Assembly (NCBI GenBank): GCA_014729195.1
Contig: WJKI01000013.1
Span: forward strand, 1 to 48,724
Source of the DNA: Candidatus Woesearchaeota archaeon
GTDB taxonomy: Archaea; Nanobdellota; Nanobdellia; Woesearchaeales; ARS49
Length of the DNA stretch: 48,724 bases
Reading direction: 5' to 3'
The position numbers and the translations under genes are program-made. This document shows, piece after piece, positions 3,620 to 48,724 of this stretch. The notes beneath the pieces are model-generated. The model was not told the DNA's origin, did no database searches, and saw nothing but the letters and a program-made list of their open reading frames with translations. Position 1 is the first letter of the stretch; each line of letters begins with the position of its first letter.

Positions 3620-3623
3620 ATTA

Positions 3624-3643
3624 TTTTTTTTATCTTATTTTTT
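3624..3643 (+). terminator. oligo-T tracts after 2627..3619
   Basis: T-runs follow the stop codon directly. Confidence 0.4.
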
Positions 3644-3687
3644 AAAACACAAAACATATAAATGAGACTTGATTTTTGGAAGATAAT

Positions 3688-30045: not shown

Positions 30046-30058
30046 AAAAGGTAATATA

Positions 30059-30334
30059 ATGGCAAAAGTAATTGTGACACTGGAAATAATGCCTGAAAAC
30101 AATGAAGTAAACTTAGACGAGATAGAAACAAAAGCCAAAAAAGCAGTAAAAGAAAAAGAAGGAATAATAAATTCAGTAAATAGAGAGGACGTGGCATTTG
30201 GCCTTAAAAAGATAATAATCAAGTTTGCAGTAGATGAAAACAAGGGAAGTCCTGATCCAATCGCAGAAGGACTTGAAAAAGAACCAGATGTTGCATCTGC
30301 ACAAATAACAATGGTATCTCGGGCACTGGGATAG
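30059..30334 (+). CDS. ef1b: translation elongation factor aEF-1 beta
   Basis: Reads MAKVIVTLEIMPENNEVNLDEIE...VAFGLKKIIIKF.... Length is ~91 aa. ATG 30059 is preferred over the track start. Confidence 0.85.
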   Translation: MAKVIVTLEIMPENNEVNLDEIETKAKKAVKEKEGIINSVNREDVAFGLKKIIIKFAVDENKGSPDPIAEGLEKEPDVASAQITMVSRALG

Positions 30335-30338
30335 AAAA

Positions 30339-32379: not shown

Positions 32380-32716
32380 GTTCTTCAGAACAGAACCAAA
32401 CCTTTTCTCCGTCAATCTCTTTTTCAACAACTTTTTCAGGATCCTGGCTCAGCGGCTTGCCGCAATAAGCACAAGTTCCTAATTCTCCCTTGTCTTCTGC
32501 ACCTTCTGCAAAAGCCTCTTCCTGAGGGGAGATTTCATCATTTTTAATCAATTCTTCCCTGCCTTCCTCACTAGTGATATCTGCATCTCTTTCCCCTTTG
32601 CGCATTTCTTTATTTTTTTCCCCAGAAGTCGGTTCTTTCTGCAAAAACTTTGCTTTTTCCTCTTCAATACCTTCTTTTTCAAGGTCTGTGTCCAAAACTG
32701 TTTTTTTATCAGCCAT
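32351..32716 (-). CDS. acidic protein with a C-terminal L24e/TRASH-like zinc motif
   Basis: CAYCGKPL...DGEKVWFCSEEH follows an acidic, disordered N-terminal region. Confidence 0.45.
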   Translation of the reverse strand: MADKKTVLDTDLEKEGIEEEKAKFLQKEPTSGEKNKEMRKGERDADITSEEGREELIKNDEISPQEEAFAEGAEDKGELGTCAYCGKPLSQDPEKVVEKEIDGEKVWFCSEEHAKKGKKTE

Positions 32717-32727
32717 AGAAACAAAAT

Positions 32728-34593: not shown

Positions 34594-34852
34594 TAATTTT
34601 GCAAAGTAAGATTAGTTTAAATGTTTTTCGTCTGTAAACTGATTTTTTTTCCGGATAATTAAGATGTTAAAAATTTTGCTTTTTTAGGCTCTAAAAAACC
34701 CTGTTTTTTAGAAAGGTTTAAATAGAAAGTATGATTTGTAAAATACATAACAAAAAGGGGCTAAATCTTTTAAACCGATTTAAACCATAAATCGAAAGGT
34801 TTAAATATATGGTATAAAATACATATTTTGATATATCCGTTGGGGTGGTTGT

Positions 34853-35122
34853 GTGAAAAATAAAGAAATATTCAAGGTTTTTTTCAGGGAAAAACCATCA
34901 ATGATGTTGGTGGAATTACGCAATGCAAAATCAGAAGTATATGCTTCTTCGTTAGCAAAACAAATAGACTGTACATATTCACATGTTGTTAAGATCCTGC
35001 AGGAAATGGAAAAAGAAGGACTGATTAATTTTGACAAACAAGGAAGACTTAAATTGTTAACCTTAACCAAAAAAGGACAGGAAATAGCTTCTAGAATAGA
35101 CGATGTCAGAGGAATGCTTTAA
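34853..35122 (+). CDS. small winged-helix transcription regulator
   Basis: GTG start 4 nt after GGGGTGG. Contains SSLAKQIDCTYSHVVKILQEMEKEGLI...LTKKG. Confidence 0.6.
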   Translation: MKNKEIFKVFFREKPSMMLVELRNAKSEVYASSLAKQIDCTYSHVVKILQEMEKEGLINFDKQGRLKLLTLTKKGQEIASRIDDVRGML

Positions 35123-35266
35123 GCAAGGTTTACAAATTCTTTAAATTTTTATATTACTATGAAAATTTTTGTATCATACACTTTCCTGCATGCAATGACA
35201 GATCAAACAATAGAATTTAAAAATCCTGAAGAATTATACGAAAAATTAAAAAAAATAGAATAAATC

Positions 35267-35722
35267 CTATTCAGTATACATCTTCAACTTATTAGGATCA
35301 TACTTCCATGAAACCGGAATTCTTCCAGATTCCTTATAATATTTGATTAATCGCTTGATTTTAGACTCAGTCAATTGATGACCCCTCTTAGCAGTCATAT
35401 CCTGCGTGTTATTCGCCAAATGGGACTTAACTGCAACCAATTTTCTCATTAAAGCAATTAAATCCTCTGGCAAATCCTTTGTCAGTTTTTTCTCAGCCAT
35501 AATCTTGGTAATGGTCTTGCCAGTAAGCATCTTAATGTCAGGAACACCATAAACATCTCTTAAAATAACCCCAATCTCAGAAGCAGTTTTATCATCTTTT
35601 GCTAATTTAGCAATTAACATTTCAATCTCTTTATCACCATACCTAATCCAATTAGATTTCTGCCTAAGCAACGGCTTATGAGAGCCGGATTTTCCCTTCT
35701 TTCTTGAATGCATTCTAGCCAT
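35267..35722 (-). CDS. rps15: 30S ribosomal protein uS15 (S13e type)
   Basis: Starts MARMHSRKKGKSGSHKP. The C-terminal S15 fold has RLIKYYK. Confidence 0.9.
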   Translation of the reverse strand: MARMHSRKKGKSGSHKPLLRQKSNWIRYGDKEIEMLIAKLAKDDKTASEIGVILRDVYGVPDIKMLTGKTITKIMAEKKLTKDLPEDLIALMRKLVAVKSHLANNTQDMTAKRGHQLTESKIKRLIKYYKESGRIPVSWKYDPNKLKMYTE

Positions 35723-35838
35723 GTTTGTTCACCTGTATTGTATATGGAGAAAATCTTAATTTCTCCAGCATAAACAAGCCATATTAGACCGGTTTATCTC
35801 TTGAATAGGAAATAGTAGTATATGGTGGTTTATAAAGT

Positions 35839-36549
35839 TTACTCTTCGTGACAGATACCGCCAGCAGACTCTGTTGCTTCTATGTATAACTTTGCATTAG
35901 GATTTAAAGTATACGGCGCTCCAACAGGATGGCCATTTACTTCCTTATCATTGATTTTCAAAGAAACAAAATCCTCAGAAACACTTTTAACTTCAATATC
36001 AGTTCCCTTGCCGTTAACAGTAAAATACGCATTCTGGCCCTCTAAAATACTCCGGCACTTTTCCCTGCCATCATCAACACACACTGAAGTCCAAAAATAA
36101 GTAGGACTACAAGCACGATTATTACCGCAATCAGAATGAACACAGCAATTGTTTAAAGGAATACATTTATTCTGGGAAATACACCAATTAGAATCTTTAT
36201 CACAAACACAAGATTCTTTTTTAGAATCATATATTTGATTAAATGGACAAACATGCTTGACGCATTTATTATTTTCACAAAACTCTCCCAAACCGCAATC
36301 GCCGGAATCACAGCATAATCCCTGGTCAATACAGTCACCCTTGCACATCTTTAAATCATCATTACAAACGCATTCACCATTAACACAATATTGATTCTCT
36401 TTGCATTGTATTTCATCACATAGTTTTTCCTTAACATTAATTTCAACATCAACAACTTTCGCATCAATCGGCCTTGCTTCAATAGTTCCATTAGAACAAG
36501 CACTAACCAAAAGCAAGCCAATGATTAAAAAAGGCATAATAAACTTCAT
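35839..36549 (-). CDS. Cys-rich secreted lipoprotein
   Basis: VSAC lipobox. Repeated C-x-x-N-Q/K-x-C-V/I-x-x-x-C modules. Confidence 0.6.
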   Translation of the reverse strand: MKFIMPFLIIGLLLVSACSNGTIEARPIDAKVVDVEINVKEKLCDEIQCKENQYCVNGECVCNDDLKMCKGDCIDQGLCCDSGDCGLGEFCENNKCVKHVCPFNQIYDSKKESCVCDKDSNWCISQNKCIPLNNCCVHSDCGNNRACSPTYFWTSVCVDDGREKCRSILEGQNAYFTVNGKGTDIEVKSVSEDFVSLKINDKEVNGHPVGAPYTLNPNAKLYIEATESAGGICHEE

Positions 36550-36613
36550 TCCCCCAACCTATATATGATAAAGCAAGGTAATTTATAAAAGTTGCGTATA
36601 TAAAAGAGAAATA

Positions 36614-36716
36614 TAGCTCCCCGCGGACATTCGCAAAAGCTATATTACAACTTTAAATTCGAACCGCGGTCTACGGGGCCAGAACCCGCAATGCTTGGCC
36701 ACTACACCAGGGAGCT
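36614..36716 (-). tRNA. tRNA-Gln (CUG) with a 30-nt insertion in the T-loop/T-stem junction
   Basis: Hand fold: AGCTCCC-TG-GTGT-AGTGGCCAA-GCAT-T-GCGGG-TTCTGGC-CCCGT-AGAC-CGCGG-TTCGAAT-[30 nt, ~36627-36656]-CCGCG-GGGAGCT-A. Confidence 0.8.
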
Positions 36717-36813
36717 ATTTGTAATATGATGAATATACTTGATTTTAAAAAGCTTTATACAAAAAGCTTAAATATAAGAATGCCTCAATATAGCATATCA
36801 AAGAGGTGAAAAA

Positions 36814-37074
36814 ATGGACAGGCAAGAAATAATCATTCTTTTTATCGTAGCAATATTAGCAGTAATAGGACTTGTATTAATGTATAAAAATATTGATGCA
36901 ACAGGAGAAGCAACATATCCTCAATTACAGAGAACAAATGTTATTGGCTGCAATACAAATGCAGACTGCTACTGGGCGCTAAACAGCCTGGATTATGAAT
37001 GCCGGGTAGGACTGTGCAGACCAAAAAACGCAATAGGACCTCCGCAGTATGCGCCTAAGTTAAAGATTAGGTAA
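36814..37074 (+). CDS. small membrane-anchored Cys-containing protein
   Basis: SD AGAGGTGA lies upstream. N-terminal TM helix, then CNTNADCYW...CRVGLC. Confidence 0.45.
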   Translation: MDRQEIIILFIVAILAVIGLVLMYKNIDATGEATYPQLQRTNVIGCNTNADCYWALNSLDYECRVGLCRPKNAIGPPQYAPKLKIR

Positions 37075-37953
37075 TTAACAATATTTATCTAATATTTTCA
37101 CTATTTTTTCTGTAGCTTTTTTTATCTTTGGTTCTAAACTTTTAGGAGTTTTAGCAACCCTGCCTTCAGTGAATAAATGCATCGGTCTTTTAGGAGAAAC
37201 AAATAACATGCTGCCGGCATAGTTTCCATTAACTGCCATGCTTCTGATTTCATAGAATTCATTTTTGAATATATTATCGCAAGTTATTAGCTCTTCTAAT
37301 AAATAAGGTTCTTTAATTTTTAAGTTTTTAGGAATATCCTTAACTGATTTACAAATCTTTAAACCTCGACTCTTTTGTCCTTTCCTGGGCTTTAAAATAA
37401 AGGGATTATTTAGTATTGTTTTTGGTACTTTTTTAATATCTTTTTTGTTCTCTATTAAAAACGCTCTAGGAACTTTAACATCAGTATATTTGTTAACCAA
37501 TCTTTTTGTTCTTAACTTATCAACAGTTAATTCAACAACTTTATACGAATTAATAACTTTAATGCCTGCTTTTTCCTGAGCCAAAGCATGATTGGCAGAA
37601 ACTCTTAAGACAACATCTGGTTTAATTATTTTATTTTTATTATCAATTAAAGAACCATCGCCCTGTTTCATTCTTGCTTTGTTTTTGTCATGAGGACACA
37701 CACTAACCTTTCCTTTGAAATGCTTTTTGAACTCCTTTGCGACCTCAAATTTGCCCCAATCATACCGCGTAATAACTGCTAAGTGTTTGTATTTTTTATT
37801 TAAGAAATCACATAATTCCTTAACTGGCGGCATATGATTGTAAACTTCTTTGTATTTGCCCAACGCTCCAGGAGTGGAATTGACTTCTAAGAAATATAGG
37901 TTTTTATCCTTTCCATATATGAAATCTAGACCTAAGTATATACAGTGCTTCAT
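37075..37953 (-). CDS. RimK-like ATP-grasp ligase, circularly permuted
   Basis: The N-terminus carries the normally C-terminal Mg-binding strand GLDFIYGKDKNLYFLEVNSTPG. The normal N-terminal and central blocks follow (HLAVITR, DKLRTKRL, PFILKPRKGQKSRG, LLEELI, YEIRSMAVNG). Confidence 0.7.
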   Translation of the reverse strand: MKHCIYLGLDFIYGKDKNLYFLEVNSTPGALGKYKEVYNHMPPVKELCDFLNKKYKHLAVITRYDWGKFEVAKEFKKHFKGKVSVCPHDKNKARMKQGDGSLIDNKNKIIKPDVVLRVSANHALAQEKAGIKVINSYKVVELTVDKLRTKRLVNKYTDVKVPRAFLIENKKDIKKVPKTILNNPFILKPRKGQKSRGLKICKSVKDIPKNLKIKEPYLLEELITCDNIFKNEFYEIRSMAVNGNYAGSMLFVSPKRPMHLFTEGRVAKTPKSLEPKIKKATEKIVKILDKYC

Positions 37954-37977
37954 TGATCACCTCTATTAAAAAATTGA

Positions 37978-38065
37978 TAGCCCCGGGCAGATCCAAACTA
38001 AGCCTTAGGAAGGCTTAGGAGCCCAAAAGGTCAGTTAAACAAAGTTTAACTGCCCAAGTTAATCA
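37978..38065 (-). repeat. 88-nt tRNA-Gln trailer module: two hairpins plus a degenerate copy of the tRNA 3' end
   Basis: ATCTGCCCGGGGCTAT of the tRNA is repeated identically. The repeat 3' ends are exactly 88 nt apart. A 9-bp hairpin lies at 38032-38052 and a 7-bp hairpin at 37998-38018. Confidence 0.6.
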
Positions 38066-38168
38066 TAGCCCCGGGCAGATTCGAACTGCCGTCTGCGCAT
38101 CCAAAGTGCACAATGACTGGCCTTCTTTGGTACAAACCATAAGAATTTGACCACTACACTACGGGGCT
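38066..38168 (-). tRNA. tRNA-Gln (UUG) with a ~31-nt insertion in the D arm
   Basis: Hand fold: AGCCCCG-TA-GTGT-AGTGGTCA-A[~31 nt, ~38116-38146]CAT-T-GTGCA-CTTTGGA-TGCGC-AGAC-GGCAG-TTCGAAT-CTGCC-CGGGGCT-A. Confidence 0.8.
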
Positions 38169-38226
38169 GTAAAATGGATCAACCACTAATGATTAAGAAC
38201 GATTTGGTATTTATAAAAGTTGCTTT

Positions 38227-38988
38227 TTATTCCTTGAACTGCTGAACAACTTCTTGCTCTACAAAATGCATTTCATCAGGAACTATTAAGCACTGCAGTC
38301 CTTGGAATTCTGCTTTCAACAACTGCTCTGCAGTTCCTGCCTTTATAATCTGATTATCAGAACCAAGATTAGCACAACCAATACAAAAAGTATCCTTGTC
38401 AAAAACATTCTCCTTTCTTTTTGCTTCAATATCCAACAAGTTTTTAATTGCTTCATTAACAGACATGAATCGATTTTCAACCGGATTCAGGTCTAAAAGA
38501 ATTAAAGTATGCAAATTTAATTCCTGATTATCCTTCAACGCATCATAATGAGTTTCTGGCTCAAAACCTTTAGAAGGAAATGGTAAACTAGTTGTTTTAC
38601 CGAACTTGTATAGTTGCAATCCTGTAACTGCAATAGCTGTAAGAATTGATGCATTATGTATAATTTTTGTTTCAATATTTAGTTCTTTAGCCCTGTTGAG
38701 TAAGTCAAAATGAGTTGTGGCTGCAAACGGATCACCAACAACCAGAAAAGAAACTTTTTTTCCTTGGGCGTCTTTTAAAATTGTTTCTTCTGCTTTTTTT
38801 TCCACTAAATTCCGATCTGCCAAGATGATTTTCTTATCGTACAAATCTTCCAGTTTTGAAACTGATACTGAAAGGACTGAAGTATAGTTCTCTAAATATA
38901 CAATATCTGAATCTTTAATTAGATTCAATCCCTTCAAAGTGATGTCTGTTTCATCACTCAATCCGATGCCAATAAAGTACAATGCCAT
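38227..38988 (-). CDS. dph5: diphthine synthase
   Basis: Starts MALYFIGIGLSDETDITLKGL. Contains VSFLVVGDPFAATTH. Length is ~253 aa. Confidence 0.9.
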   Translation of the reverse strand: MALYFIGIGLSDETDITLKGLNLIKDSDIVYLENYTSVLSVSVSKLEDLYDKKIILADRNLVEKKAEETILKDAQGKKVSFLVVGDPFAATTHFDLLNRAKELNIETKIIHNASILTAIAVTGLQLYKFGKTTSLPFPSKGFEPETHYDALKDNQELNLHTLILLDLNPVENRFMSVNEAIKNLLDIEAKRKENVFDKDTFCIGCANLGSDNQIIKAGTAEQLLKAEFQGLQCLIVPDEMHFVEQEVVQQFKE

Positions 38989-39020
38989 ATAAGAACATAG
39001 AATTTGAGAGTTTAAAAAGC

Positions 39021-39449
39021 TTAAGGATTGATTTTTTTCTTGTGAAACCAGTATTTTTCCAAAGAATAACCGCCTGAAAGCACAATAATGGATAAAATGA
39101 CAACAACAAAACCAAGGGCGAATTCCTTAATCGCAGCCATTAATCCAATGCCGGCAGCAATCCATAAAGTAGTTGCAGTAGTCAAGCCCACAATCTTATT
39201 TCTTTCCTTGAAAATAACCCCGCCACCGATAAAACCAATACCAACAACAACCTGGCCGGCAATACGGGAAATATCAACTCCAGGACCTGCAAAAGAAATA
39301 GAGGTCAAGGCAAAAACAGTTGCTCCAAGACAAACCAAAGCGTGAGTTCTTAGACCTGCAGGACAATCACGAAATTCCCTTTCCAAGCCAAGAATTGCTC
39401 CTAAAGCTAGACTAATCAAAACGCGAACCAAAATATCCTGTGTTATCAT
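39021..39449 (-). CDS. mgtC: MgtC/SapB-family membrane protein
   Basis: About 140 aa with 4-5 TM helices. Contains GLEREFRDCPAGLRTHALV. Confidence 0.8.
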   Translation of the reverse strand: MITQDILVRVLISLALGAILGLEREFRDCPAGLRTHALVCLGATVFALTSISFAGPGVDISRIAGQVVVGIGFIGGGVIFKERNKIVGLTTATTLWIAAGIGLMAAIKEFALGFVVVILSIIVLSGGYSLEKYWFHKKKINP

Positions 39450-39593
39450 CTTGAAAAAAAAGAAATCCCTCCTCTAGGGAGGGCAAAAAGTTTTTTGCCT
39501 TCAATATACGATTGGGGGTGGTATGAATGAAGGCAAAGAAACACACCCGACCTCGTATGGGGTCGTAACCAAAGACCAAAGGGGGTGAGCATT
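39450..39593 (-). promoter_or_regulatory. GC-rich structured spacer between ftsZ and mgtC (candidate leader or attenuator)
   Basis: There are three hairpins: CGACC.../...GGTCG at 39548-39565, the 9-12 bp TTGCCTTCA/TGAAGGCAA at 39495-39536, and CCCTCC/GGAGGG at 39467-39483. In mgtC sense the last hairpin is followed by ATTTCTTTTTTTTCAAG-ATG. Confidence 0.3.
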
Positions 39594-40664
39594 TTAATTG
39601 ATCACTTCAATACCCAGGCCATCTTCCATTTGCTTGACCGCTTCTGCCTTTCTTTTAACAGCAGTTTGCTGGCCAACAATCCATGGAGAATTAACGCCGG
39701 TAATAATTGTCATAACCATAAGCTTGCCTTTCATATCATCTGCAATCCTTGCGCCCCAAATAACATTAGCGTCTTCATCTAAATGATTAGTTACTAATTC
39801 TCCTGCTTTACTAATCTCTTCCAGAGTCATATCAGGACCACCGCAAATATGAATCAAAGCTCCGGTTGCTCCTTCATATTGAATATCCAACAACGGATTT
39901 TCCAAAGCTCCTTTTACTGCCTCAACAACCCGGTTGTTGGTATCAGAACTGCCAACACCAATTGCGGCAACTCCTCCATTTTTCATTATTGCCTTGACAT
40001 CTGCAAAATCAAGATTCACTAATGAAGGAACAGCAATTGTTTCAACAATTCCCTTGAGCATTGTAGAAATTAATTCATTTGCAACTGCAAAAGCCTGCTG
40101 AATAGGCAAGTTACCTGCAATCTCAACTAATCTGTTATTGTCAATAACAATAACAGTATCAGAATGTTCTCTTAACTGCTCCAGGCCAAACTCTGCTTTT
40201 TCAACTCTTGCTCTTTCAATATTAAAAGGCATTGTTACAGTGCCAATCACAATAGAACCCATATCTCTTGCCAATTGTGCGATAATAGGAGCACTCCCTG
40301 TTCCGGTTCCTCCACCCATTCCTGCACATATAAAAACCATGTCTGAATTTTTCAAAACATCTTTTAAGTCGTTAATACTTTCCTGAGCAGCTTCTGCACC
40401 TTTTTGAGGAAAACCACCACAACCAAGACCGCGGGTTACCTCTTTGCCGATAATGAATTTTTTATCAGCTTCAGTAATATTCAAATGCTGCTGATCTGTA
40501 TTGCATGCAATAATCTCAGCACCTTTGATTCCCCGTTTGTACAACCAGGAAATCATGTTGTTTCCACCACCGCCTGAACCAATCACTTTTATATTTGCCT
40601 GACCAACTTGCAAACCAGCATTTGGGTTTGCGTTTTTTTGCGCGTTTTGCACAAGTATGTCCAT
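39594..40664 (-). CDS. ftsZ: cell division GTPase FtsZ
   Basis: Tubulin signature GGGTGTGSAP, NTDQQHL, and the T7 loop region. Confidence 0.95.
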   Translation of the reverse strand: MDILVQNAQKNANPNAGLQVGQANIKVIGSGGGGNNMISWLYKRGIKGAEIIACNTDQQHLNITEADKKFIIGKEVTRGLGCGGFPQKGAEAAQESINDLKDVLKNSDMVFICAGMGGGTGTGSAPIIAQLARDMGSIVIGTVTMPFNIERARVEKAEFGLEQLREHSDTVIVIDNNRLVEIAGNLPIQQAFAVANELISTMLKGIVETIAVPSLVNLDFADVKAIMKNGGVAAIGVGSSDTNNRVVEAVKGALENPLLDIQYEGATGALIHICGGPDMTLEEISKAGELVTNHLDEDANVIWGARIADDMKGKLMVMTIITGVNSPWIVGQQTAVKRKAEAVKQMEDGLGIEVIN

Positions 40665-40768
40665 ATCTCATCCCCCCTTTTTGGTTTTTGTTATATAATT
40701 CAATCTATATATTCAACTTGCGAAATGTTTATATGCAAGTGGAGTATAATACTTTTTAGAACGAGTTT

Positions 40769-40881
40769 GGGGTGTTTGCGCCAACAAATATCTCAAGAAA
40801 AACCGTCTAACTATCTTAGAACGCCAAACTAAGATTACCAAAATTTTAACGCCAAATTTTAAACGAGTCCGCCAAAACTCG
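40769..40881 (+). ncRNA. candidate RNA with four hairpins, each presenting CGCCAA in the loop
   Basis: The hairpins lie at 40769-40794, 40813-40835, 40845-40863 and 40864-40881. The stems are unrelated in sequence and the loops are CGCCAA, AACGCCAAA, CGCCAAATT and CCGCCAAA. The first stem has three G-T pairs on the + strand. A TATA-like GAGTATAATA lies at 40742-40751. Confidence 0.35.
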
Positions 40882-40963
40882 ATTTAAAATCAATATTTCT
40901 TTATATTTATAAAACAAGTATATAAATATTTTTATGGTAAGAAATATATTTTACAGAATATAA

Positions 40964-41617
40964 TTAAGATTTTCTCGACGGAGATTTTTTTTCTCCCGAC
41001 GCCATTTTTCTAAAAATCTCCTTGCCTTTTTCAGCAGCTTTCTTTATATGCTCTCCGTAATAACCCATGTATGCTGCAATATCCTTGATTCTATTGCCCC
41101 ATTTGTCGATAAAAACAACATCAGTCAAAGGATACTTGTCAGGAACCCTTGGTTCTTCAGCAGGATATCCAATTGGAACCACGCCCAAAATTCGGATATT
41201 ATCTGGGGCACCAATTGCAGAACGCAACTGATCTTCTTCACACGCACCAACCCAACAGGCACCAAGACCTTGAGCATGCGCAGCCAACAAAATATTTTCA
41301 ATCGCAGCAGCAGCATTCTGCAAACAATATAATTTCTCCCCTTTTTCTCCATAAAATCTCTCTGCTTTTCCCGGGTCAGAACAAACAACAATATAAATAG
41401 GAGCATCATTCATCCAGGTCTGCATGCACGCAGCCATGGAAATTTTCTCCCTAATCTTATACTCTGTAACCAAAATAAAATTCCATTCCTGAATATTGCC
41501 TGCCGAAGGAGCTAATCTTGCAGAATCCAAAATATTTCCTATTAATTCAAAAGGAACAGGACGATCCTTGAATCGTCTTATACTCCGCCGGGTCTTAATA
41601 CACTCTAATGCATCCAT
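40964..41617 (-). CDS. nitroreductase-family flavoprotein
   Basis: Contains TRRSIRRF, APSAGNIQ and the fold-typical LAAHAQGLGACWVG. Confidence 0.8.
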   Translation of the reverse strand: MDALECIKTRRSIRRFKDRPVPFELIGNILDSARLAPSAGNIQEWNFILVTEYKIREKISMAACMQTWMNDAPIYIVVCSDPGKAERFYGEKGEKLYCLQNAAAAIENILLAAHAQGLGACWVGACEEDQLRSAIGAPDNIRILGVVPIGYPAEEPRVPDKYPLTDVVFIDKWGNRIKDIAAYMGYYGEHIKKAAEKGKEIFRKMASGEKKSPSRKS

Positions 41618-41724
41618 TTAATAACCTCTTTTAACATAAAGTTTTTATATACTACTCCTTTATAATCTTTTCGTATGAAAAACGGCCAAAACATATTTGG
41701 CAAGCTTCATTTTTGGAGAACAAA

Positions 41725-43482
41725 ATGAAATACGCGGAATTGGTGGGAGTATACAATAAATTAGAAAATACTTCAAAACGATTGGAAAAAGCATATCATC
41801 TTTCTGAATTTCTTAAAAAAGTAGACAGCGCAGAACTGGATAAAGTAATGTTATTAGTCCAAGGAAAAGTGTTTCCATCATGGGATGAAAGAAAAATAGG
41901 TGTTGCAGCAAGAATACTTATTAAGGCAATACAAACATCAACAGGAATAAATGCAGAAAAAACATGGAGAGAAACAGGAGACATAGGAAAAGCAGCAGAA
42001 AAATTAACAGCATGCAAAGAACAAGCAACCCTGTTCTCCCAGGAATTAAGCGTGGATAAAGTATTTGACAACCTCCAAAAACTCGCAACATTAGAAGGAA
42101 CAGGCACAGTAGACAAAAAAATAAAACTAATCTCAGAATTATTAACCAGCGCAAGCCCTATAGAAGCACGATACATAATACGAACAACAATAGAAGAATT
42201 AAGAGTGGGACTGGGAGAAGGAACAATAAGAGATGCAATAGTATGGGCATATTTTGGAGAACAAGCCAAGATAAATTATTCCGTGGAAGAAAACAAATTA
42301 AAAGTGGAAAACCGCGGGGAATACATGAAATATGTGGATGCTGTGCAGGAAGCATATGATGTAGTAAATGATTTCTCAATTATTGCAAAAATCGTAAAAC
42401 AAAAAGGATTTGAAGGACTCTCTGAAATAAAAATGAAGCCAGGAATACCGATAAAGGTAATGCTTTATCCTAAAGCAAAAGGAATAGAAGATGCCTATAC
42501 AATTGTGGGCAAGCCCGCGGCCCTGGAATACAAATATGACGGATTCAGAATGCAAATCCACAAAAAAAACAAAACAATAAAAATATTTACCCGGCGCCTG
42601 GAAGACGTCACTGCACAATTTCCAGATGTATGTGAATATGTTTCTGAAAAAATCGAAGGAGAATCATTTATTATTGATTCAGAAGCAGTAGGATATGACC
42701 GATTCAGCAAGAAATACATCGCATTCCAGCATATCTCCCAACGAATAAAAAGAAAATATGATATTGAAGAAATGGCAAAAAGATATCCTGTCGAGTTAAA
42801 CGTGTTTGATGTAATTTATTACAACGGCGAAAACTTGATTAAAAAACCGTTTTCTGAACGCAGAAAAATACTGGTTTCAATGATAAAAGAACCAGAATAT
42901 CTTAAACTAAAACCTGCAGAACAAGTAATGACCGAAAATACTGCTGATGCAGAATCATTTTATCAAAAAAGTCTTGACGCAGGAAATGAAGGGATAATGG
43001 TAAAAAATTTACAAGGAATATATAAACCCGGGGCACGAGTAGGATACGGAGTAAAAGTAAAACCAACAATGGAAACAGTAGACGCAGTAATCACTGGTGC
43101 AGAATGGGGAGAAGGAAAACGCTCAGCATGGCTCGCAAGTTTTATTGTTGCGGTGCGTAATACAGAAACCGACGAATTTGTAGAAATAGGGCGAGTGGGA
43201 ACAGGAATAAAAGAAAAATCAGAAGAAGGAGTGAGTTTTGGACAATTAACAGAAATGCTCAAACCAATAATAATAAAAGAAGAAGGAAGAATAGTGCAGA
43301 TAAAACCAGAAATAGTAATAGAGCTTGATTATGAAGAAATACAAAAAAGTCCCACGTATAGCTCAGGATATGCACTTAGGTTTCCTCGCTTGGTTAATCT
43401 GCGCGAAGAACGCAGTCCTGAAGAGATAACCACTCTTGAAGACATAGAAATTTTATATGAATCCCAAAGAGGAAGAGGGTAA
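41725..43482 (+). CDS. lig: ATP-dependent DNA ligase
   Basis: Adenylation motif EYKYDGFRMQIH, motif V GIMVKN, and a C-terminal OB domain. ATG 41725 is preferred over the track TTG. Confidence 0.9.
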   Translation: MKYAELVGVYNKLENTSKRLEKAYHLSEFLKKVDSAELDKVMLLVQGKVFPSWDERKIGVAARILIKAIQTSTGINAEKTWRETGDIGKAAEKLTACKEQATLFSQELSVDKVFDNLQKLATLEGTGTVDKKIKLISELLTSASPIEARYIIRTTIEELRVGLGEGTIRDAIVWAYFGEQAKINYSVEENKLKVENRGEYMKYVDAVQEAYDVVNDFSIIAKIVKQKGFEGLSEIKMKPGIPIKVMLYPKAKGIEDAYTIVGKPAALEYKYDGFRMQIHKKNKTIKIFTRRLEDVTAQFPDVCEYVSEKIEGESFIIDSEAVGYDRFSKKYIAFQHISQRIKRKYDIEEMAKRYPVELNVFDVIYYNGENLIKKPFSERRKILVSMIKEPEYLKLKPAEQVMTENTADAESFYQKSLDAGNEGIMVKNLQGIYKPGARVGYGVKVKPTMETVDAVITGAEWGEGKRSAWLASFIVAVRNTETDEFVEIGRVGTGIKEKSEEGVSFGQLTEMLKPIIIKEEGRIVQIKPEIVIELDYEEIQKSPTYSSGYALRFPRLVNLREERSPEEITTLEDIEILYESQRGRG

Positions 43483-43506
43483 TTAATCTTAATTATTTTT
43501 CGTCAC

Positions 43507-44610
43507 TCAATCTAAAAGAGCCAACAACTTTTTTTTGTTATACTTTCTTAACTTTTTTATCGCAACATCCTCTATTTGCCCTATTCGCGCACGAGTAAGA
43601 CCCAATAAAGCACCAATCTCGTCCAGCGTCCTCTTATAATAGCCATCAAGGCCAAAACGCATCTTTACAATATCTCCGGATCTCTTGTCAAGAGTATCTA
43701 TAACTTCCAAAACTCTTTCAGAAAGAGATTTATTGGCTGCAATTTGTTCAGGAGATTCAGATTTTTCATCCGGTATAAGAGACACGAATTCGCCAGAGTC
43801 ATCATCAGCATAAGTTATAAAATTATTCAAAACAGGTTTAACTCTGGAATCATAACCACGAAGATACTGACGTATTTTTTGTTTAATCCACCATACCGCC
43901 AAAGTAGAAAAATGAAATCCAAGAGAAAAATCAAATTTATCTACAGCATCCATCAATCCCAAAGTGCCCTCTTGAATAAGATCGGGGTAAATATCCGTAT
44001 CATCAACTTCAAACATTTTGGCTGTAAAAATAACCAGACGCAAATTCGACTGTACCAGTTTATCCCGAGCATTTCTGTATTTTTCAGCTAACTGATTGAT
44101 ATACGCAACAGTCTTTTTTTCTTTTTCTAAGTAAACAGCATACTTATTAACACGATTAACCTGTTCTTCAAGAAATTTTCCTTTAAAATCCAAAGGAGAC
44201 AAAAGCGCACGTTTATGCATATATTTTGAATGTATCATCTTTTTTAATTTTACTGGATTTTCTTCACAATTGTTTGATACAAACAAACTTCTGTTTTCTG
44301 CGATATATTGATTAATTTTGTATAGAGTGGGCAATATTGATTTCAAAAATTCATGCATTTTATCTTTGCGCAGAGGTTTGTGAAATGTTGCCCGAGTATT
44401 GCTCGTATTTGACGAAACATAAATTCTGGACAATTCTTCCTCTATATTTCCCGGGTATTCTGGAAGTTTTAATAAATAAAAGAGAAGTCTTTGTTTTGTA
44501 AATCGAATCTTCTTACCTAAAGCAATTTCTTCCTGATGCAGAAGTGTGCAGGGCAAATCAGACTCATACATTTTTTGATTATTAAGATATTTTCCATTAC
44601 CTCGGCGCAT
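43507..44610 (-). CDS. sigma-70 family RNA polymerase sigma factor homolog
   Basis: Region 2: LVQSNLRLVIFTAKMF...PDLIQEGTLGLMDAVDKFDFSLGFHFSTLAVWWIKQKI. Region 4: IVKMRFGLDG..TLDEIGALLGLTRARIGQIEDVAIKKLR. Confidence 0.8.
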   Translation of the reverse strand: MRRGNGKYLNNQKMYESDLPCTLLHQEEIALGKKIRFTKQRLLFYLLKLPEYPGNIEEELSRIYVSSNTSNTRATFHKPLRKDKMHEFLKSILPTLYKINQYIAENRSLFVSNNCEENPVKLKKMIHSKYMHKRALLSPLDFKGKFLEEQVNRVNKYAVYLEKEKKTVAYINQLAEKYRNARDKLVQSNLRLVIFTAKMFEVDDTDIYPDLIQEGTLGLMDAVDKFDFSLGFHFSTLAVWWIKQKIRQYLRGYDSRVKPVLNNFITYADDDSGEFVSLIPDEKSESPEQIAANKSLSERVLEVIDTLDKRSGDIVKMRFGLDGYYKRTLDEIGALLGLTRARIGQIEDVAIKKLRKYNKKKLLALLD

Positions 44611-44729
44611 ATTTTGTTCCCCCTGCCAGTAAAAAGCATTAAAGTTATAATAATCAACAGATTACTTAAAAAGTTATTTGTTATAAAAAACATAGTTTTT
44701 TAAGCCCAAATAGGTTATGTATTCTCAAA

Positions 44730-44803
44730 GCCCCTGTAGTATAGCTTGGATAGTACGCACGGTTGCGGTCCGTGAAACCGGAGTTCAAATCTTCGCAGGG
44801 GCA
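44730..44803 (+). tRNA. tRNA-Arg (GCG), no intron
   Basis: Hand fold: GCCCCTG-TA-GTAT-AGCTTGGATA-GTAC-G-CACGG-TTGCGGT-CCGTG-AAAC-CGGAG-TTCAAAT-CTTCG-CAGGGGC-A. Confidence 0.9.
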
Positions 44804-44891
44804 TTAGGCCATTAAGTGCATTGCGCTTAATGGACTGTTTTTCTATCAAATCTTTTTCTAAAAGATTTGGTTCCAAATCTGCGCAGGGGCA
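44804..44891 (+). repeat. 88-nt tRNA-Arg trailer module: two hairpins plus a degenerate copy of the tRNA 3' end
   Basis: GTTCAAATCTTCGCAGGGGCAT (44783-44804) recurs as GTTCCAAATCTGCGCAGGGGCAT (44870-44892). The 3' ends are exactly 88 nt apart. An 8-bp hairpin lies at 44809-44833 and a 10-bp hairpin at 44847-44869. Confidence 0.6.
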
Positions 44892-44932
44892 TAATTAGTT
44901 TATTTTGAATAAATAAAAAAAACAGAAATAGA

Positions 44933-45631
44933 TCAGAATAATTCTTCTGCCTGTGATGTCCACTGACCGCATTCCCTGCTTTTGGTATCAATATCCCAAT
45001 AATAATCAGCGCAATCTGGGACAGTTGAAGCCAGACAAATACCAACATGATTAGAACTAATATCTCCGACTTTAATACCTACTTGTTCACCAATAAAAGT
45101 CTGGCCATAACCAAGATAAGGAGTTTCAACGCCATTTACCCTAAACGCGGCCTTCCTGTTTTTAATATCCAATAACATTACATTACCTTCAATACCTCTA
45201 AACTGAAAATCCTGCGAATAACTAGCACTTAAGCCACTAGGACTCATGTAAGGAATGACATACCCTCCTTTACAACCAGATAATTGTCTAACTGCCTGGC
45301 CAGTACCGGAATAAGCAAAATACAAACCACCAATAGCAACCAACAATACTGCAACAAAAACAACAGCTTCAAGTCTTCTGGAACTAAACCGCTGAAAAAA
45401 ACCAGAACTCCTTGCTGTTTGAGCCTGTCTTCTTTTCCGGCGTGCTGCCTGCACCCGACTCTTTGATCTTGTCTGAGTTCTTCTCTGACGTGCAGCCTGT
45501 GCACGAGCTCTTGTCTTTTTCCCTGATTGCGCCCGACGTCTTGCCCTTGCCTGTTTCTTTGATTGGGTTCGGGTATTGGCTTGTTTCCGGGCGCCGGCCC
45601 GCCTTTTTGCACGAGATTGAGTCTTCATCAA
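44933..45631 (-). CDS. single-pass membrane protein with an Arg-rich cytoplasmic N-tail
   Basis: About two dozen Arg residues occur in the first ~85 aa (RAKRRAGARK...ARARRRAQ...AARRKRRQ). A TM helix AVVFVAVLLVAIGGLYFAY follows, then a ~120-aa Cys-containing ectodomain. Confidence 0.55.
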   Translation of the reverse strand: MMKTQSRAKRRAGARKQANTRTQSKKQARARRRAQSGKKTRARAQAARQRRTQTRSKSRVQAARRKRRQAQTARSSGFFQRFSSRRLEAVVFVAVLLVAIGGLYFAYSGTGQAVRQLSGCKGGYVIPYMSPSGLSASYSQDFQFRGIEGNVMLLDIKNRKAAFRVNGVETPYLGYGQTFIGEQVGIKVGDISSNHVGICLASTVPDCADYYWDIDTKSRECGQWTSQAEELF

Positions 45632-45719
45632 ATCACCTCTTAATATACTATAATCAGAAGAACTTCTTTATAAACTTTACCTAAAATTTGTTTTATATAT
45701 CTAAACAACTTTTGTTAAA

Positions 45720-46376
45720 TTATCTTTTGTGAAAAAGATATTTTACCCCAATTTTTCTGAGCATAGACATTCCTCTTGCCCAAGGCAAAGGAGCAATCCT
45801 GCCATCTCCTTTTGTTGTTTTGTTCCTGATTGCTTTTTTTAAACTGCCCTTGAATAAAGTATATCCTTTACCTATTTCATAATAAAAATGAGCATCAGAA
45901 CCGCCAGTTTCTGCTAACTTATATTTTCTCGCAGCCACCAAAGCATAAAAATTCTCCCAATGAAAAGTATTTCTTGAATTATGAACTTCAACACCATCCA
46001 AATTTTTTAATTCTTTCAAGTCAACCTTTGCACACTTTCTTATGATTCCATGGCCGAAGGGATGGGCAATAACCGCAATACCGCCCTGCTTATGAATTTC
46101 CTTGATGACTTTTAACGGTTCTCTTTCTTTGATTTCTCTTTTAAGATAATATCCTATTATTTCTCCTGCTTTTGTTTTTATTTCAGCGCCAATAATCACT
46201 TCAAAGTTTTTATCCTTGTTTAATTTCTTTGCCTCTAAACCGCCTTTAATCGTATTATGATCAGTAATTGCAATACCATTAAGTTTCCTTTTTTTAGCAA
46301 TTCTAAGAATTTTAGAAGGCCGCATATTACTGCAGCTGGAAAAATGAGAATGAATGTGAAGATCGTATTTTTTCAT
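45720..46376 (-). CDS. PHP-domain metal-dependent phosphoesterase
   Basis: Starts MKKYDLHIHSHFSS. Contains ITDHNT, IAHP and GGSDAH. ATG 46376 is preferred over the track TTG 46397. Confidence 0.8.
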   Translation of the reverse strand: MKKYDLHIHSHFSSCSNMRPSKILRIAKKRKLNGIAITDHNTIKGGLEAKKLNKDKNFEVIIGAEIKTKAGEIIGYYLKREIKEREPLKVIKEIHKQGGIAVIAHPFGHGIIRKCAKVDLKELKNLDGVEVHNSRNTFHWENFYALVAARKYKLAETGGSDAHFYYEIGKGYTLFKGSLKKAIRNKTTKGDGRIAPLPWARGMSMLRKIGVKYLFHKR

Positions 46377-46398
46377 TGTATTGATAAGGTTAACCAAG

Positions 46399-47049
46399 TT
46401 ATTTAAAGATTGCTATAGTTGATGCACTTTTTCTTCCAAAAATCGGTCCATCTTTTACCTGAAATTCCAATTTTTTTAATTTTTCTCTCAAATGAGTTGC
46501 GCAGGAATATGTTGCGAGAATTGAACCCGGCTTCATAACTTGTTTTATGCTCTTTAAGAAATCTAAAGTCCACAATCCCGGGCATTTTTTAGGAGAAAAA
46601 GGATCAAGGAAAACCGCATCAAACTTTTGATTAATTTTCTTAATAGTTTCTTTTGCATCTCCTAACAGGATTTTGATTTGAATGTTCTTGTCAATTATCA
46701 CCGAATTAAATTTATCCAATTTTTGAATCAATCTGAATGATTTGAACGGAGCTTTAATTTCTTTTATCAAATCAAACAATTTTACATCTTCTTCCAAGCC
46801 GATAACATTAATCTTACAATCAGGATTAGACTCAAGTGCTGCATCTATTGCCGCAGCAGTGTTGTATCCTAAACCGAAACATATATCAAGAATAGAAATG
46901 CTCCCTGATTCAGCCAATTTCTTGATATTACACGGCTCTACAAACTTGATTTTGGCTTCAGAAACTGCGCCCGCCAAACAATGATAAGTCTCATCAAACT
47001 TTTCATTATGAAAAGTTATTGAGTTGTCCTTTGTTATTATTTGTTTCAT
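46399..47049 (-). CDS. MnmC-like SAM-dependent methyltransferase domain protein
   Basis: Contains DETYHCLAGAVSEA, ILDICFGLGYN and DAVFLDPFSPKKCPGLWT. The start at MKQII (47049) overlaps the end of the hel308 fragment. Confidence 0.6.
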   Translation of the reverse strand: MKQIITKDNSITFHNEKFDETYHCLAGAVSEAKIKFVEPCNIKKLAESGSISILDICFGLGYNTAAAIDAALESNPDCKINVIGLEEDVKLFDLIKEIKAPFKSFRLIQKLDKFNSVIIDKNIQIKILLGDAKETIKKINQKFDAVFLDPFSPKKCPGLWTLDFLKSIKQVMKPGSILATYSCATHLREKLKKLEFQVKDGPIFGRKSASTIAIFK

Positions 47050-48511
47050 TTTTAATACCCACCTGTTCCAAAATGTTTTCTGCAACTTTTTTACTTCCCA
47101 ATACTTGAGTTAAAAATTCAGGTTTTGCTTTTCTTAGATCAGATAATTTCTTTAGATTTGCTTTGAACAGCTTTCTGGCTCTAACTCTACCAATATTTTT
47201 CAACTTTAATAATGACAGCAATTCCTCTTTAACACCGTATCTTAATCTAAACTTTAATTTTATAATATCCTTTAAAATTTCCTGTTTTTGCTGAATTCTG
47301 GCTATTTCATACAAAGCATATAACAGCCAATTTGCAGTTTCTATTTTCATTCTGACAATGCCCGGTCCGACATCATAATTTTCCATAAGATAATCATCAT
47401 CTTTTTCCTCAATCCACTCATTTAACATAAAACTAGTTTTTATTGAATTTAGATAAACATCATACTCTGGATCAAACATAGAAGGTTCATTGGTAATGAA
47501 ACTTTCATCATATTTTGCTATCTCTTCCTGAAAATCATCATATTCTCTTAATTTTACTCTCAACAATGGACGCATTTCCAGAGTATTTGAGATAAGTTGC
47601 AATAAAGACAAGGCATTCACCTTGCTACCTGTTTTTTCCAAAGCAACAACAAACTCATGAGCAGTAAAAGGATCAATATATAACTCAGCAATTCTCCTGC
47701 CCAACACAGTTGCCCGAAACTTACTATCCGTGTATTGAATAAACTCCCAGGATTCTAGAAGTTTCAACATTCTAACAATAGTCTGTTCTAATTTCTTTAA
47801 ATCCTTAAACTGAAATGCCCAAAAAGTCTTTTCAAAAAAACTTAAAATCTGTTCCTTGGTCTGGATAACTTTTGTTGCAATCAGAGATAATAGATATGTT
47901 CTTAACACAGGCTCAACAGCCAGCTTAGAATAAATATCTTCCGGCTCACCTTGCACATATTTTTCTGTTAATGCATCTTTTTGACCATCACTTGAAGAAA
48001 CCAAAATTGCTTCACCAAAAGTATCATAATTAGGTCTTCCTGCTCTGCCAGACATCTGCAAATATTCCAAAACAGGAATGTCAGTCATGCCTCTTCCGGT
48101 GTATCTTTTAGTATCTCGTATGATCGCTCTGAAAGCTGGGAGATCTAACCCCGCTGCTAAAGTAGGAGTACAGCAAATAATTTTTATATTACCCTGCCTA
48201 AAATTAGATTCAATCAATTCTTTTTGTTTAGAATGCAAACTCGCATGATGAAACGCAATACCTTTTTCTAGACACACAGATAATCTTCTGCATTGTTTAG
48301 TGGGTTTTTGGACTGCTTTTAATGCAGTTGAAGACAATTCATTCAATTCTTTACTCGTCTGTTTTAATTTCTTAGCTATCTCTTCTGCACATTTCTCAGC
48401 TGATTTTTTAGTATTTACAAAAACCAGGGCCTGCTTGTTACTCTTCAGAGTATCCAAAGCAAGATTAACAATAGAATCTGCATATTTTTTCTCTACTTTT
48501 AAAACAGACAT
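47006..48511 (-). CDS. Hel308/Ski2-like helicase, C-terminal portion only (RecA2, WH, ratchet, HhH)
   Basis: Begins at motif IV (QALVFVNTKKSAE). Has motif V TPTLAAGLDLPA and motif VI QMSGRAGRP, and a C-terminal HhH NIGRVRARKL. There is no Walker A or DEAH. A TATA-like CTATATAAA lies ~30 nt upstream of the ATG. Confidence 0.8.
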   Translation of the reverse strand: MSVLKVEKKYADSIVNLALDTLKSNKQALVFVNTKKSAEKCAEEIAKKLKQTSKELNELSSTALKAVQKPTKQCRRLSVCLEKGIAFHHASLHSKQKELIESNFRQGNIKIICCTPTLAAGLDLPAFRAIIRDTKRYTGRGMTDIPVLEYLQMSGRAGRPNYDTFGEAILVSSSDGQKDALTEKYVQGEPEDIYSKLAVEPVLRTYLLSLIATKVIQTKEQILSFFEKTFWAFQFKDLKKLEQTIVRMLKLLESWEFIQYTDSKFRATVLGRRIAELYIDPFTAHEFVVALEKTGSKVNALSLLQLISNTLEMRPLLRVKLREYDDFQEEIAKYDESFITNEPSMFDPEYDVYLNSIKTSFMLNEWIEEKDDDYLMENYDVGPGIVRMKIETANWLLYALYEIARIQQKQEILKDIIKLKFRLRYGVKEELLSLLKLKNIGRVRARKLFKANLKKLSDLRKAKPEFLTQVLGSKKVAENILEQVGIKNETNNNKGQLNNFS

Positions 48512-48635
48512 AAACAGTATTATTTATAGAACATTTATATAGGTTGTGGAGGGTTGAGCAGTGGGTATATACATTTTTAGCGCGAACGGCATAATTAGTT
48601 GTAAGAAATAGAGAAAATAAAAATAGCATAAAAAA

Positions 48636-48723
48636 TGGGCCTGCGGAGATTTGAACTCCGGACCTCACGATTTCTATCTTTTTGATATCAGTCGTGCGCT
48701 CCACCAGGCTAAGCTACAGGCCC
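48636..48723 (-). tRNA. tRNA-Ile (GAU) with a canonical 14-nt intron after position 37
   Basis: Hand fold: GGGCCTG-TA-GCTT-AGCCTGGTG-GAGC-G-CACGA-CTGATA[TCAAAAAGATAGAA, 48672-48685]A-TCGTG-AGGTC-CGGAG-TTCAAAT-CTCCG-CAGGCCC-A. Confidence 0.85.
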
Positions 48724-48724
48724 A

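Follow-up and report, generated by a model that had tools for sequence, protein, structure and literature searches.

A trimmed sigma-70-family gene native to a woesearchaeotal genome and its hypervariable slot between a tRNA-Arg gene and a DNA ligase gene

Introduction

A gene for a bacterial-type sigma-70 factor lies at positions 43507-44610 (minus strand) of a contig of Candidatus Woesearchaeota archaeon (NCBI GenBank assembly GCA_014729195.1, contig WJKI01000013.1, positions 1 to 48,724; this whole stretch of 48,724 nucleotides is hereafter called the window) and raises the question of what a sigma factor is for in an archaeal cell. In the textbooks, sigma factors mark transcription initiation in bacteria, and TBP and TFB that of archaea and eukaryotes; we know of no bacterial core polymerase in the host archaeon. 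The analysis presented here makes it fairly probable that the gene encodes a native, DPANN-specific, trimmed sigma factor, kept as a dispensable accessory gene in a hypervariable slot, and that its product is likely an accessory regulator.

The initiation machinery of these organisms consists of TBP, TFB, and TFE (PMC8204110). Sigma-70 genes (fam00359) were described by Castelle et al. in 2021 as "particularly prevalent in Woesearchaeota", in a study that ruled out mis-binning, saw no accompanying anti-sigma factors, and did not settle the mechanism (PMC8204110); the original prediction for the present gene, made from the letters of the window alone, had rightly mentioned such sigma-like genes in DPANN bins. 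A 2025 study added two rpoS-like genes in DPANN viruses, one of which lies in a DPANN prophage (PMC12647753), and no functional study of DPANN sigma-70 genes was found in the literature.

Results

Identity and genomic setting of the sigma gene

The open reading frame (ORF) at 43507-44610 is intact, starts with ATG, and encodes a genuine sigma-70-family protein of 367 aa (P0001) that is native to an archaeal genome. An open frame of 367 codons in DNA of 35 % GC has a chance of about 1e-12, estimated from base composition alone. The protein matches the Pfam profiles Sigma70_r2 (PF04542; aa 185-253, E 1.9e-13, 50.5 bits against a cutoff of 24) and Sigma70_r4 (PF04545; aa 304-356, E 4e-12, 45.9 bits against a cutoff of 24.1), with no other domain in the Pfam scan. 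Among the NCBIfam profiles, it exceeds the cutoff of TIGR02937, the sigma-70 superfamily, only (97.6 against 42.9), and stays far below those of the RpoD, RpoS, and MzaA equivalogs (for RpoD, 158.4 bits against 555 with NF004208 and 145.9 against 354 with TIGR02393). The motifs DLIQEG (aa 210), FSTLAVWWIKQ (aa 234), MRFGLDG (aa 317), and TRARIGQIE (aa 339) are present, and together with the Pfam and TIGR02937 matches they bear out the prediction of an ORF with sigma-70 regions 2 and 4. The identical NCBI entry is titled 'sigma-70 family RNA polymerase sigma factor [Candidatus Woesearchaeota archaeon]', the best sequence match is Bacillus subtilis SigA (E 4e-35), and the best Protein Data Bank matches of the AlphaFold2 model, as found by Foldseek, are the Escherichia coli sigma70 chains of holoenzyme structures.

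The setting is archaeal, as predicted: the neighbours include an ATP-dependent DNA ligase with its N domain, a Hel308-type helicase with the archaeal domain 4, XPD, Trm1, RtcA, and FtsZ, all of archaeal type, and a topoisomerase gene is likewise encoded in this archaeal-type window. No bacterial core RNA polymerase genes were found within the window, and sites resembling sigma70-type promoters are not enriched in its part 30000-48724 (63 against 65.3 +/- 8.6 expected). The composition of the sigma gene is native with respect to GC content (0.341 against 0.352 +/- 0.031 for the window genes), GC content at third codon positions (GC3; 0.274 against 0.278 +/- 0.038), and codon usage (r of 0.856 against a mean of 0.775). 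Moreover, the gene order Hel308, MTase_30, PHP, orfX, [tRNA-Arg], sigma, ligase, nitroreductase, and FtsZ recurs, as far as each contig reaches, in loci L009, L010, L063/L064, and L158, which together with the window make five assemblies from independent samples.

Since five independent assemblies repeat this gene order, the contig is not chimeric at the sigma gene. It is hardly credible that the gene stems from faulty assembly or binning or reached this genome from a bacterium only very recently: its best database matches outside its own subfamily are indeed bacterial RpoD and SigA proteins (~35 % identity), but bacterial proteins never exceed 35-40 % identity to it, and both the contiguous archaeal contig of native GC, GC3, and codon usage and the presence of sigma in the same slot of five independent assemblies refute such an origin. 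The chimera check that the original prediction had asked for is thus negative, and its view of the gene as native in composition and not a recent import finds support in these data and in the DPANN-specific subfamily described below.

Domain architecture of the window copy

Judged from alignments and the predicted structure, the window copy is a trimmed derivative of a primary-type sigma factor, in which a compact module of region 1.2, a non-conserved region (NCR), and sigma2 is tethered to sigma4, without sigma1.1 or sigma3. The gene is organised as follows, from the upstream region to the C-terminus.

44611-44729 (minus strand): intergenic region upstream of sigma, with a GGGGG Shine-Dalgarno-like run 8 nt before the ATG
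44503-44544 (minus strand), aa 23-36: region 1.2, LLHQEEIALGKKI, aligning to the LLTREEEIxLxKxI consensus (hhalign)
44086-44502 (minus strand), aa 37-175: NCR-like all-helical insertion with the subfamily motif L.LP.Y.G.IE and a predicted local distance difference test score (pLDDT) of 83-97
43852-44085 (minus strand), aa 176-253: sigma2, regions 2.1-2.4 (Pfam r2; alignment to B. subtilis SigA and E. coli RpoD)
43753-43851 (minus strand), aa 254-286: flexible linker of ~33 aa in place of sigma3, keeping the acidic region 3.2 motif DDDSGEFVSLIPD
43510-43752 (minus strand), aa 287-367: sigma4, regions 4.1-4.2 (Pfam r4)

The N-terminal part of ~170 aa, which had been considered unrecognised, proves by alignment and hhalign to consist of region 1.2 and the subfamily NCR. 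Pfam Sigma70_r1_2 matches the corresponding segment in the subfamily member P0197, and is not detected on the window protein itself at E <= 1. Region 1.1 is absent, as the ORF begins just ahead of region 1.2, at a distance of no more than 119 bp from the tRNA gene. The absence of sigma3 had been overlooked in the original prediction. In the alignment with B. subtilis SigA (7ckq_F), residues 161-258 of the window protein correspond to SigA 114-210 and residues 268-363 to SigA 271-366, so that about 50 aa between SigA 210 and 271 (258 and 268 in the query), which constitute the sigma3 domain (regions 3.0/3.1), are gone; no PF04539 match was found in the window protein by Pfam. The window protein is the only one of 12 aligned sequences with the corresponding 57-column gap, and the alignment thus identifies the loss of sigma3 as an in-frame deletion that is recent and lineage-specific, not an ancestral state.

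The AlphaFold2 model, built on an alignment of 53 sequences, has a mean pLDDT of 87.6 and comprises a confident all-helical module of region 1.2, NCR, and sigma2 (aa 20-252) and a confident sigma4, connected by a linker that is disordered at aa 261-276 (pLDDT <50). Residues are given hereafter in what we take to be the E. coli sigma70 numbering, with offsets of +193 in sigma2 and +244 in sigma4 derived from the alignments. D403, Q406, E407, W433, W434, Q437, R584, R586, and Q589 are kept, as is the core-binding helix DLIQEG (W240/W241 of the window protein correspond to W433/W434 and Q244 to Q437), whereas the substitutions N409T, K414D, Y425F, Y430L, T440R, R441Q, E585A, and R588G are found. 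Among the residues that recognise the -10/-12 and -35 elements, W433, W434, Q437, and R584 are therefore retained, while Y430L, T440R, R441Q, E585A, and R588G are changed, and the recognition helix of the helix-turn-helix (HTH) reads TRARIGQIE in the window against TRERIRQIE in bacterial group 1 and most subfamily members. The description of the gene as well preserved goes too far, as sigma3 and region 1.1 are gone and several positions that contact DNA in E. coli sigma70 carry other residues. In the AT-rich region upstream of the gene, we infer a putative TATA-like element (TTATAA/TTTAAT) ~30-40 nt from the start.

A DPANN subfamily derived from a primary sigma factor

The best two matches of the window protein among 1.84 billion representative proteins (exhaustive HMMER) are P0121, from a syntenic locus, and P0122, from a 'Nanoarchaeota archaeon' (L068), and these best matches align to it from residue 7-22 onward. 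Residues 1-188 match the N-terminal parts of six relatives in hhalign (98.9 %, E 1.4e-17, 176 columns), whereas two bacterial RpoDs match this N-terminal module over region 1.2 and the first helix only (46-71 columns). When a set of 5.8 billion proteins was searched with the subfamily profile, no member scored below 446 bits and no bacterial RpoD above 398; the matches were dominated by bacterial RpoD, and P0273 was the sole further member gained. No match was obtained when GTDB genomes were scanned with the window sigma as the single query, and P0002, P0003, P0018, and P0125, at first sight close kin, are ordinary sigma genes of bacteria that lie in bacterial neighbourhoods. The window allele is a singleton, with the next word-index match after itself at 35 % and no relative above 36 % in the databases searched.

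By these sequence comparisons, the subfamily is limited, as far as sampled, to DPANN archaea (Woesearchaeota/Nanoarchaeota), and it goes back to a full-length bacterial primary (RpoD-type) sigma factor that had sigma1.1, region 1.2, an NCR, sigma2, sigma3, and sigma4. It is probably the fam00359 of Castelle et al. (PMC8204110). The assignment of the window protein to it is based on the N-terminal module, on synteny, and on full-length scores. Across the subfamily, the surviving surfaces are the region 2.2 helix, W433/W434, and the sigma4 HTH, which reads TRERIRQIEAK in most members.

Outside the slot of the window, subfamily members occur in two further surroundings. P0122 and P0268 adjoin ParE, HD, and kinase genes in 'Nanoarchaeota archaeon'; in the P0122-type locus, sigma stands beside the ParE toxin gene and the HD-domain gene, and a GyrB gene with an intein lies nearby in the Nanoarchaeota metagenome-assembled genome (MAG; L006 9943-10155, plus strand; L066 19063-21275, plus strand). 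P0197 and P0273 sit three genes from an archaeal TFB gene, which is downstream and convergent (L157 13477-14418, minus strand; L065 3923-4867, minus strand). A faint Sigma70_r4 match on this TFB appears in the precomputed Pfam list, and the adjacency of sigma and TFB may be a coincidence.

The slot between tRNA-Arg and ligase

The sigma gene of the window occupies a slot whose boundaries and internal landmarks are the following.

41713-43482 (plus strand): ATP-dependent DNA ligase gene, convergent with sigma; its 3' end is one slot boundary
44730-44803 (plus strand): tRNA-Arg(GCG), the other boundary of the variable slot
44809-44833: strong hairpin with a T-run behind it, lying between the tRNA 3' end and its copy
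44875-44891 (plus strand): copy of the tRNA-Arg 3' end, 17 nt with 1 mismatch, 88 bp downstream of the original

The position beside a tRNA-Arg repeat module is thus as originally described. The slot holds a different sigma allele in each related locus that has the gene. L009, with the gene order of the window, encodes P0121 of 535 aa with regions 1.1, 2, 3, and 4; L063/L064 and L158 encode P0237 (546 aa) and P0124 (541 aa) beside the ligase; and L010, the sigma-bearing relative closest to the window, with a ligase 82 % identical to that of the window, encodes a protein of 434 aa in which sigma3 is present and region 1.1 absent. A region 1.1-like N-terminus aligns in P0121, P0237, and P0124, with a Pfam r1_1 match in P0121 and a weak one in P0237. 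In L011, a sister species, whose ligase and FtsZ are 79 % and 90 % identical to those of the window, the same flanks and tRNA enclose ~620 bp with tiny ORFs and no sigma. A ligase-anchored survey of GTDB genomes covered about 27 Woesearchaeota/Nanoarchaeota loci and found sigma in the slot only in L010.

Several further observations concern the slot and its surroundings. The slot of L011 (9768-10383) contains two or three tiny, partly hydrophobic ORFs, and so carries alternative cargo and is not empty. The tRNA-Arg gene and sigma are transcribed away from each other in the window and in L158 (1-12); the tRNA gene runs in the direction of the sigma slot in L009 (4097-4170), L010 (5221-5313), L011 (10384-10459), and L063, where sigma, if present, lies directly 3' of it. 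These opposite orientations imply at least one inversion of the tRNA gene. The tRNA-Arg of L010 (minus strand) contains a 19-nt insert after the anticodon loop, which resembles an archaeal tRNA intron and has no counterpart in the copies of the window, L009, and L011. Another tRNA gene of the window, of 88 nt, lies at 48636-48723 (minus strand); Rfam detects it (RF00005, 57 bits) and ARAGORN does not, and it is likely to be interrupted by an intron. Its 3' part, with T-arm and acceptor, is closely similar to the corresponding part of tRNA-Arg (inverted repeat I1, 89 % complementary). Adjoining the tRNA-Arg gene, an ORF of 232 aa (44933-45631, minus strand; gene GC 0.44) begins with ~85 extra residues, among which Arg, Lys, Gln, and Ala abound and which are missing from its orthologues of 149-150 aa in L009, L010, and L063, and its conserved part has no Pfam or PHROG match. 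Between ligase and sigma, L010 has an extra ORF of 133-151 aa (3227-3682, plus strand), receiver-like by eye (KKDILLVDDEE...) and with no Pfam or PADLOC match. Elsewhere in the window, ORFs of 853 aa (27164-29725, minus strand) and 413 aa (24390-25631, plus strand) have no Pfam-A or PHROG match. Lastly, records L012, L014, L016, L018, L020, L026, and L035 are titled 'uncultured Methanosarcinales archaeon', yet show a Woesearchaeota-like synteny of ligase, nitroreductase, and FtsZ, the last being 75-80 % identical to that of the window where present; these labels are probably wrong for DPANN MAGs.

Evolutionary rates and allele turnover

Within the slot, sigma alleles are 29-45 % identical, against 65-97 % for the flanking genes, and in amino-acid divergence sigma exceeds the flanks several times over, in some cases by a factor above ten. 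Between the window and L009, the ligase is 74 % identical, nitroreductase 72 %, Hel308 71 %, PHP 68 %, MTase 67 %, and sigma 35 %; between the window and L010, the ligase is 82 % and sigma 29 % identical. Conservation in close relatives, the lack of which the original prediction had named as a refutation, is thus mixed: the position of the gene is kept and its ORF is intact, but the alleles are only 29-36 % identical where the ligases are 74-82 % identical, and L011 lacks the gene. Moreover, the identity matrices of sigma and ligase disagree: the L158 ligase is nearest to those of L009/L063 (84 %), while the L158 sigma is nearest to those of L010 and the window (38 % and 36 %), against 30 % to L009/L063.

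A close pair of loci carrying the slot, L009 and L063, has flanks that are 87-97 % identical with ratios of nonsynonymous to synonymous substitution rates (dN/dS) of 0.02-0.12, and sigma proteins that are 45 % identical with a dN of 0.49. The DNA identity is 0.85-0.93 on both sides and drops to 0.45-0.65 in a stretch bounded precisely by the tRNA 3' end and the stop codon of the ligase. As the dS of this sigma pair by NG86 is saturated and possibly inflated, differences at four-fold third positions were counted instead, at aligned identical residues only. They amount to 0.31-0.36 in each of six flanking genes (pooled 217/672 = 0.32) and to 52/85 = 0.61 in sigma, with saturation at ~0.73 (Fisher p = 5e-7 against the flanks). 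A second locus, L006 against L068, has the same tendency: where the flanks are 99-100 % identical in DNA, the proportions of nonsynonymous (pN) and synonymous (pS) differences of sigma are 0.030 against <=0.013 and 0.069 against 0.016-0.056 in the flanks, with an unsaturated dN/dS of 0.43. A third locus, L065 against L157, lacks this tendency: sigma is 89 % identical with a pN/pS of 0.18, and the nearby TFB 91 % with 0.15; the sigma subfamily is accordingly a real and constrained protein in some other Woesearchaeota.

Signs of constraint and of its loss coexist in the slot. All five alleles are open for 367-546 codons in DNA of 35-42 % GC despite an amino-acid divergence of 55-70 %, dN of sigma stays lower than dS, sigma2 and sigma4 have the lowest pN (L009/L063), and a dN/dS above 1 was measured nowhere. 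Conversely, hallmark residues have changed in single lineages (Y430L in the window, W433I in P0121, W433T/W434R in P0237, and E407I in L010), and the clade of the window has lost sigma1.1 (window and L010), sigma3 (window), and the whole gene (L011). The excess of silent-site differences implies that the sigma alleles are older than the surrounding genome, through recombination or long-lived polymorphism, or that they mutate faster, and weakened constraint alone does not suffice for it because relaxed constraint cannot raise silent divergence. Together with the sharp boundaries, this excess points to replacement by divergent alleles via recombination in addition to weakened constraint.

Discussion

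An accessory regulator and the explanations that compete with it

The fast change, the variable domain content, and the absence from L011 indicate that sigma is accessory and dispensable and does not belong to the core initiation machinery. The window sigma is most likely a non-essential, weakly constrained, and possibly recombining accessory regulator. A regulatory role as such can be assigned tentatively, and it is rated above the other roles because the known initiation machinery is TBP/TFB/TFE and because sigma is dispensable in a sister species. The protein may act through sigma4, with its HTH, and sigma2 as two DNA-binding heads on a flexible tether. In bacteria, the region 2.2 helix grips the clamp coiled-coil of RNA polymerase; by analogy, the conserved helix of the archaeal protein might contact the clamp coiled-coil of the archaeal polymerase, its structural equivalent. 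The altered recognition residues would imply a DNA target unlike the bacterial TTGACA/TATAAT consensus.

A number of points weigh against this interpretation, and several would fit another explanation, namely that the gene was functional in an ancestor, as it seems to be in the clade with the TFB locus, is now being lost in the clade of the window, and survives there as a functionless relic, which we consider unlikely. The Y430 substitution, the loss of sigma3, and the loss of the gene from L011 are equally expected under decay, which would also account for the loss of sigma1.1, the changes at Y430, W433, W434, and E407, and a divergence so far above that of the flanks; the singleton window allele could, moreover, have turned non-functional recently. 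In a neighbour-joining tree of core columns, nine other members cluster and the window protein stands apart on a long branch, which is probably the cause of its separate position. The excess of silent-site divergence comes from a single close pair, to which a second adds a milder signal, and alignment error or local hypermutation could account for part of it. Against decay stand the five open alleles, a dN below dS with the lowest pN in sigma2 and sigma4, the native codon usage, and the confident AlphaFold2 fold, and neutral decay cannot lift silent-site divergence above that of the flanks.

Several further explanations are less probable still. It is rather unlikely that Woesearchaeota keep an RpoD-derived sigma lineage of their own that truly engages RNA polymerase, be it the archaeal enzyme, via its clamp coiled-coil and in a hybrid sigma/TFB mode of initiation or regulation, or that of a bacterial partner, with the slot gene as an exchangeable cassette under diversifying selection that reflects conflict and not decay. 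Still less probable is an inter-domain effector that is delivered to a bacterial partner or acts on its RNA polymerase, as a phage-style or dominant-negative sigma in an arms race. The conserved DLIQEG core-binding helix and W433/W434 would suit such an effector, as would a linker layout compatible in principle with a bacterial holoenzyme, as is generally known from extracytoplasmic function (ECF) sigmas, and hypervariability, apparent allele turnover, and presence/absence recall conflict genes. However, no signal peptide or secretion-associated neighbour was seen, the known DPANN hosts are archaea, the sigma at the TFB locus evolves like an ordinary housekeeping gene, and dN/dS nowhere exceeds 1; beyond the fast evolution of sigma, nothing was found in favour of a bacterial host. 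That sigma is the cargo of a small mobile or viral element targeting the tRNA-Arg gene is even more doubtful. Its place directly 3' of tRNA-Arg in L009, L010, and L063 is the classical side of integration, the divergence boundaries are sharp, L011 carries alternative cargo, the tRNA gene of the window is inverted and partly duplicated, and rpoS-like sigma genes are reported from DPANN viruses and a DPANN prophage (PMC12647753). Yet the cassette comprises one gene only, 1.1-1.7 kb long, the slot contains neither an integrase nor any further gene of a mobile element, the ligase-side boundary has no att-like repeat in any locus, the PHROG matches are generic sigma families, and a scan of viral contigs returned generic phage sigmas only, none with the N-terminal module of the subfamily. 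A component of an MZA-type anti-phage system, as an MzaA-like sigma, was considered since MzaA is the top NCBIfam and PADLOC match, and was rejected with a practically negligible chance of being right: the match spans positions 420-670 of the 683 in the profile, which is the generic sigma part only, reaches 165.6 bits against a cutoff of 800, and no partner genes (MzaB-E homologues) are adjacent.

Comparison with known sigma factors

The accessory sigma of the window combines traits of several known groups. RpoD is among the most conserved bacterial proteins, whereas the window sigma evolves many times faster than its neighbours. With RpoD/SigA it shares region 1.2, an insertion at the NCR position, regions 2.1-2.4, the 3.2 motif, and regions 4.1-4.2, and the full-length relatives P0121, P0237, and P0124 (535-546 aa, with sigma1.1 and sigma3) are similar to the RpoD of Gram-negative phyla; it differs from RpoD/SigA in the lack of sigma1.1 and sigma3, in the substitution of Y430, T440, R441, K414, E585, and R588, and in a score of 158 against 555. 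The succession of sigma2, linker, and sigma4 without sigma3 or sigma1.1 and the passing of the TIGR02937 'sigma70-ECF' superfamily cutoff recall the group 4 (ECF) sigmas, from which region 1.2, the NCR of 140 aa, and a sequence closest to group 1 set it apart; no anti-sigma gene adjoins it either, its neighbours being the ligase and the tRNA. Virus-encoded sigmas are comparable in that sigma-70 genes are found on DPANN-linked elements (PMC12647753) and that the window protein matches PHROG 351, but no viral genes surround it, and its IMG/VR relatives are ~30 % identical over sigma2-sigma4 only and are without the N-terminal module. The sigmas of Castelle et al. (PMC8204110) share with it the bacterial-type sigma-70 gene beside archaeal genes and the Woesearchaeota label; that study reports presence only, and the present analysis adds the module of region 1.2 and NCR, the losses of sigma3 and sigma1.1, the slot, the extreme divergence with its silent-site excess, and the loss in a sister species.

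Significance

The bare phenomenon, a sigma-70 gene in Woesearchaeota, has been published since 2021; the trimmed structure and the hypervariable slot of this subfamily copy are, to our knowledge, new, and they are testable. Since that year, the puzzle has been a sigma lineage that is under purifying selection in archaea without a known bacterial core polymerase, and the present locus makes it approachable, with five alleles in one slot and a series that leads from the full-length protein (sigma1.1-1.2-NCR-2-3-4) to the trimmed one (1.2-NCR-2-linker-4) and to absence. Sigma is dispensable and turns over fast, at least in the clade of the window; its constraint in another clade equals that of TFB. 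The surviving surfaces, namely helix 2.2, W433/W434, and the sigma4 HTH, point to the RNA polymerase clamp and DNA as candidate partners. If the gene is merely decaying, the locus would document the dismantling of a transferred master regulator in a reduced genome.

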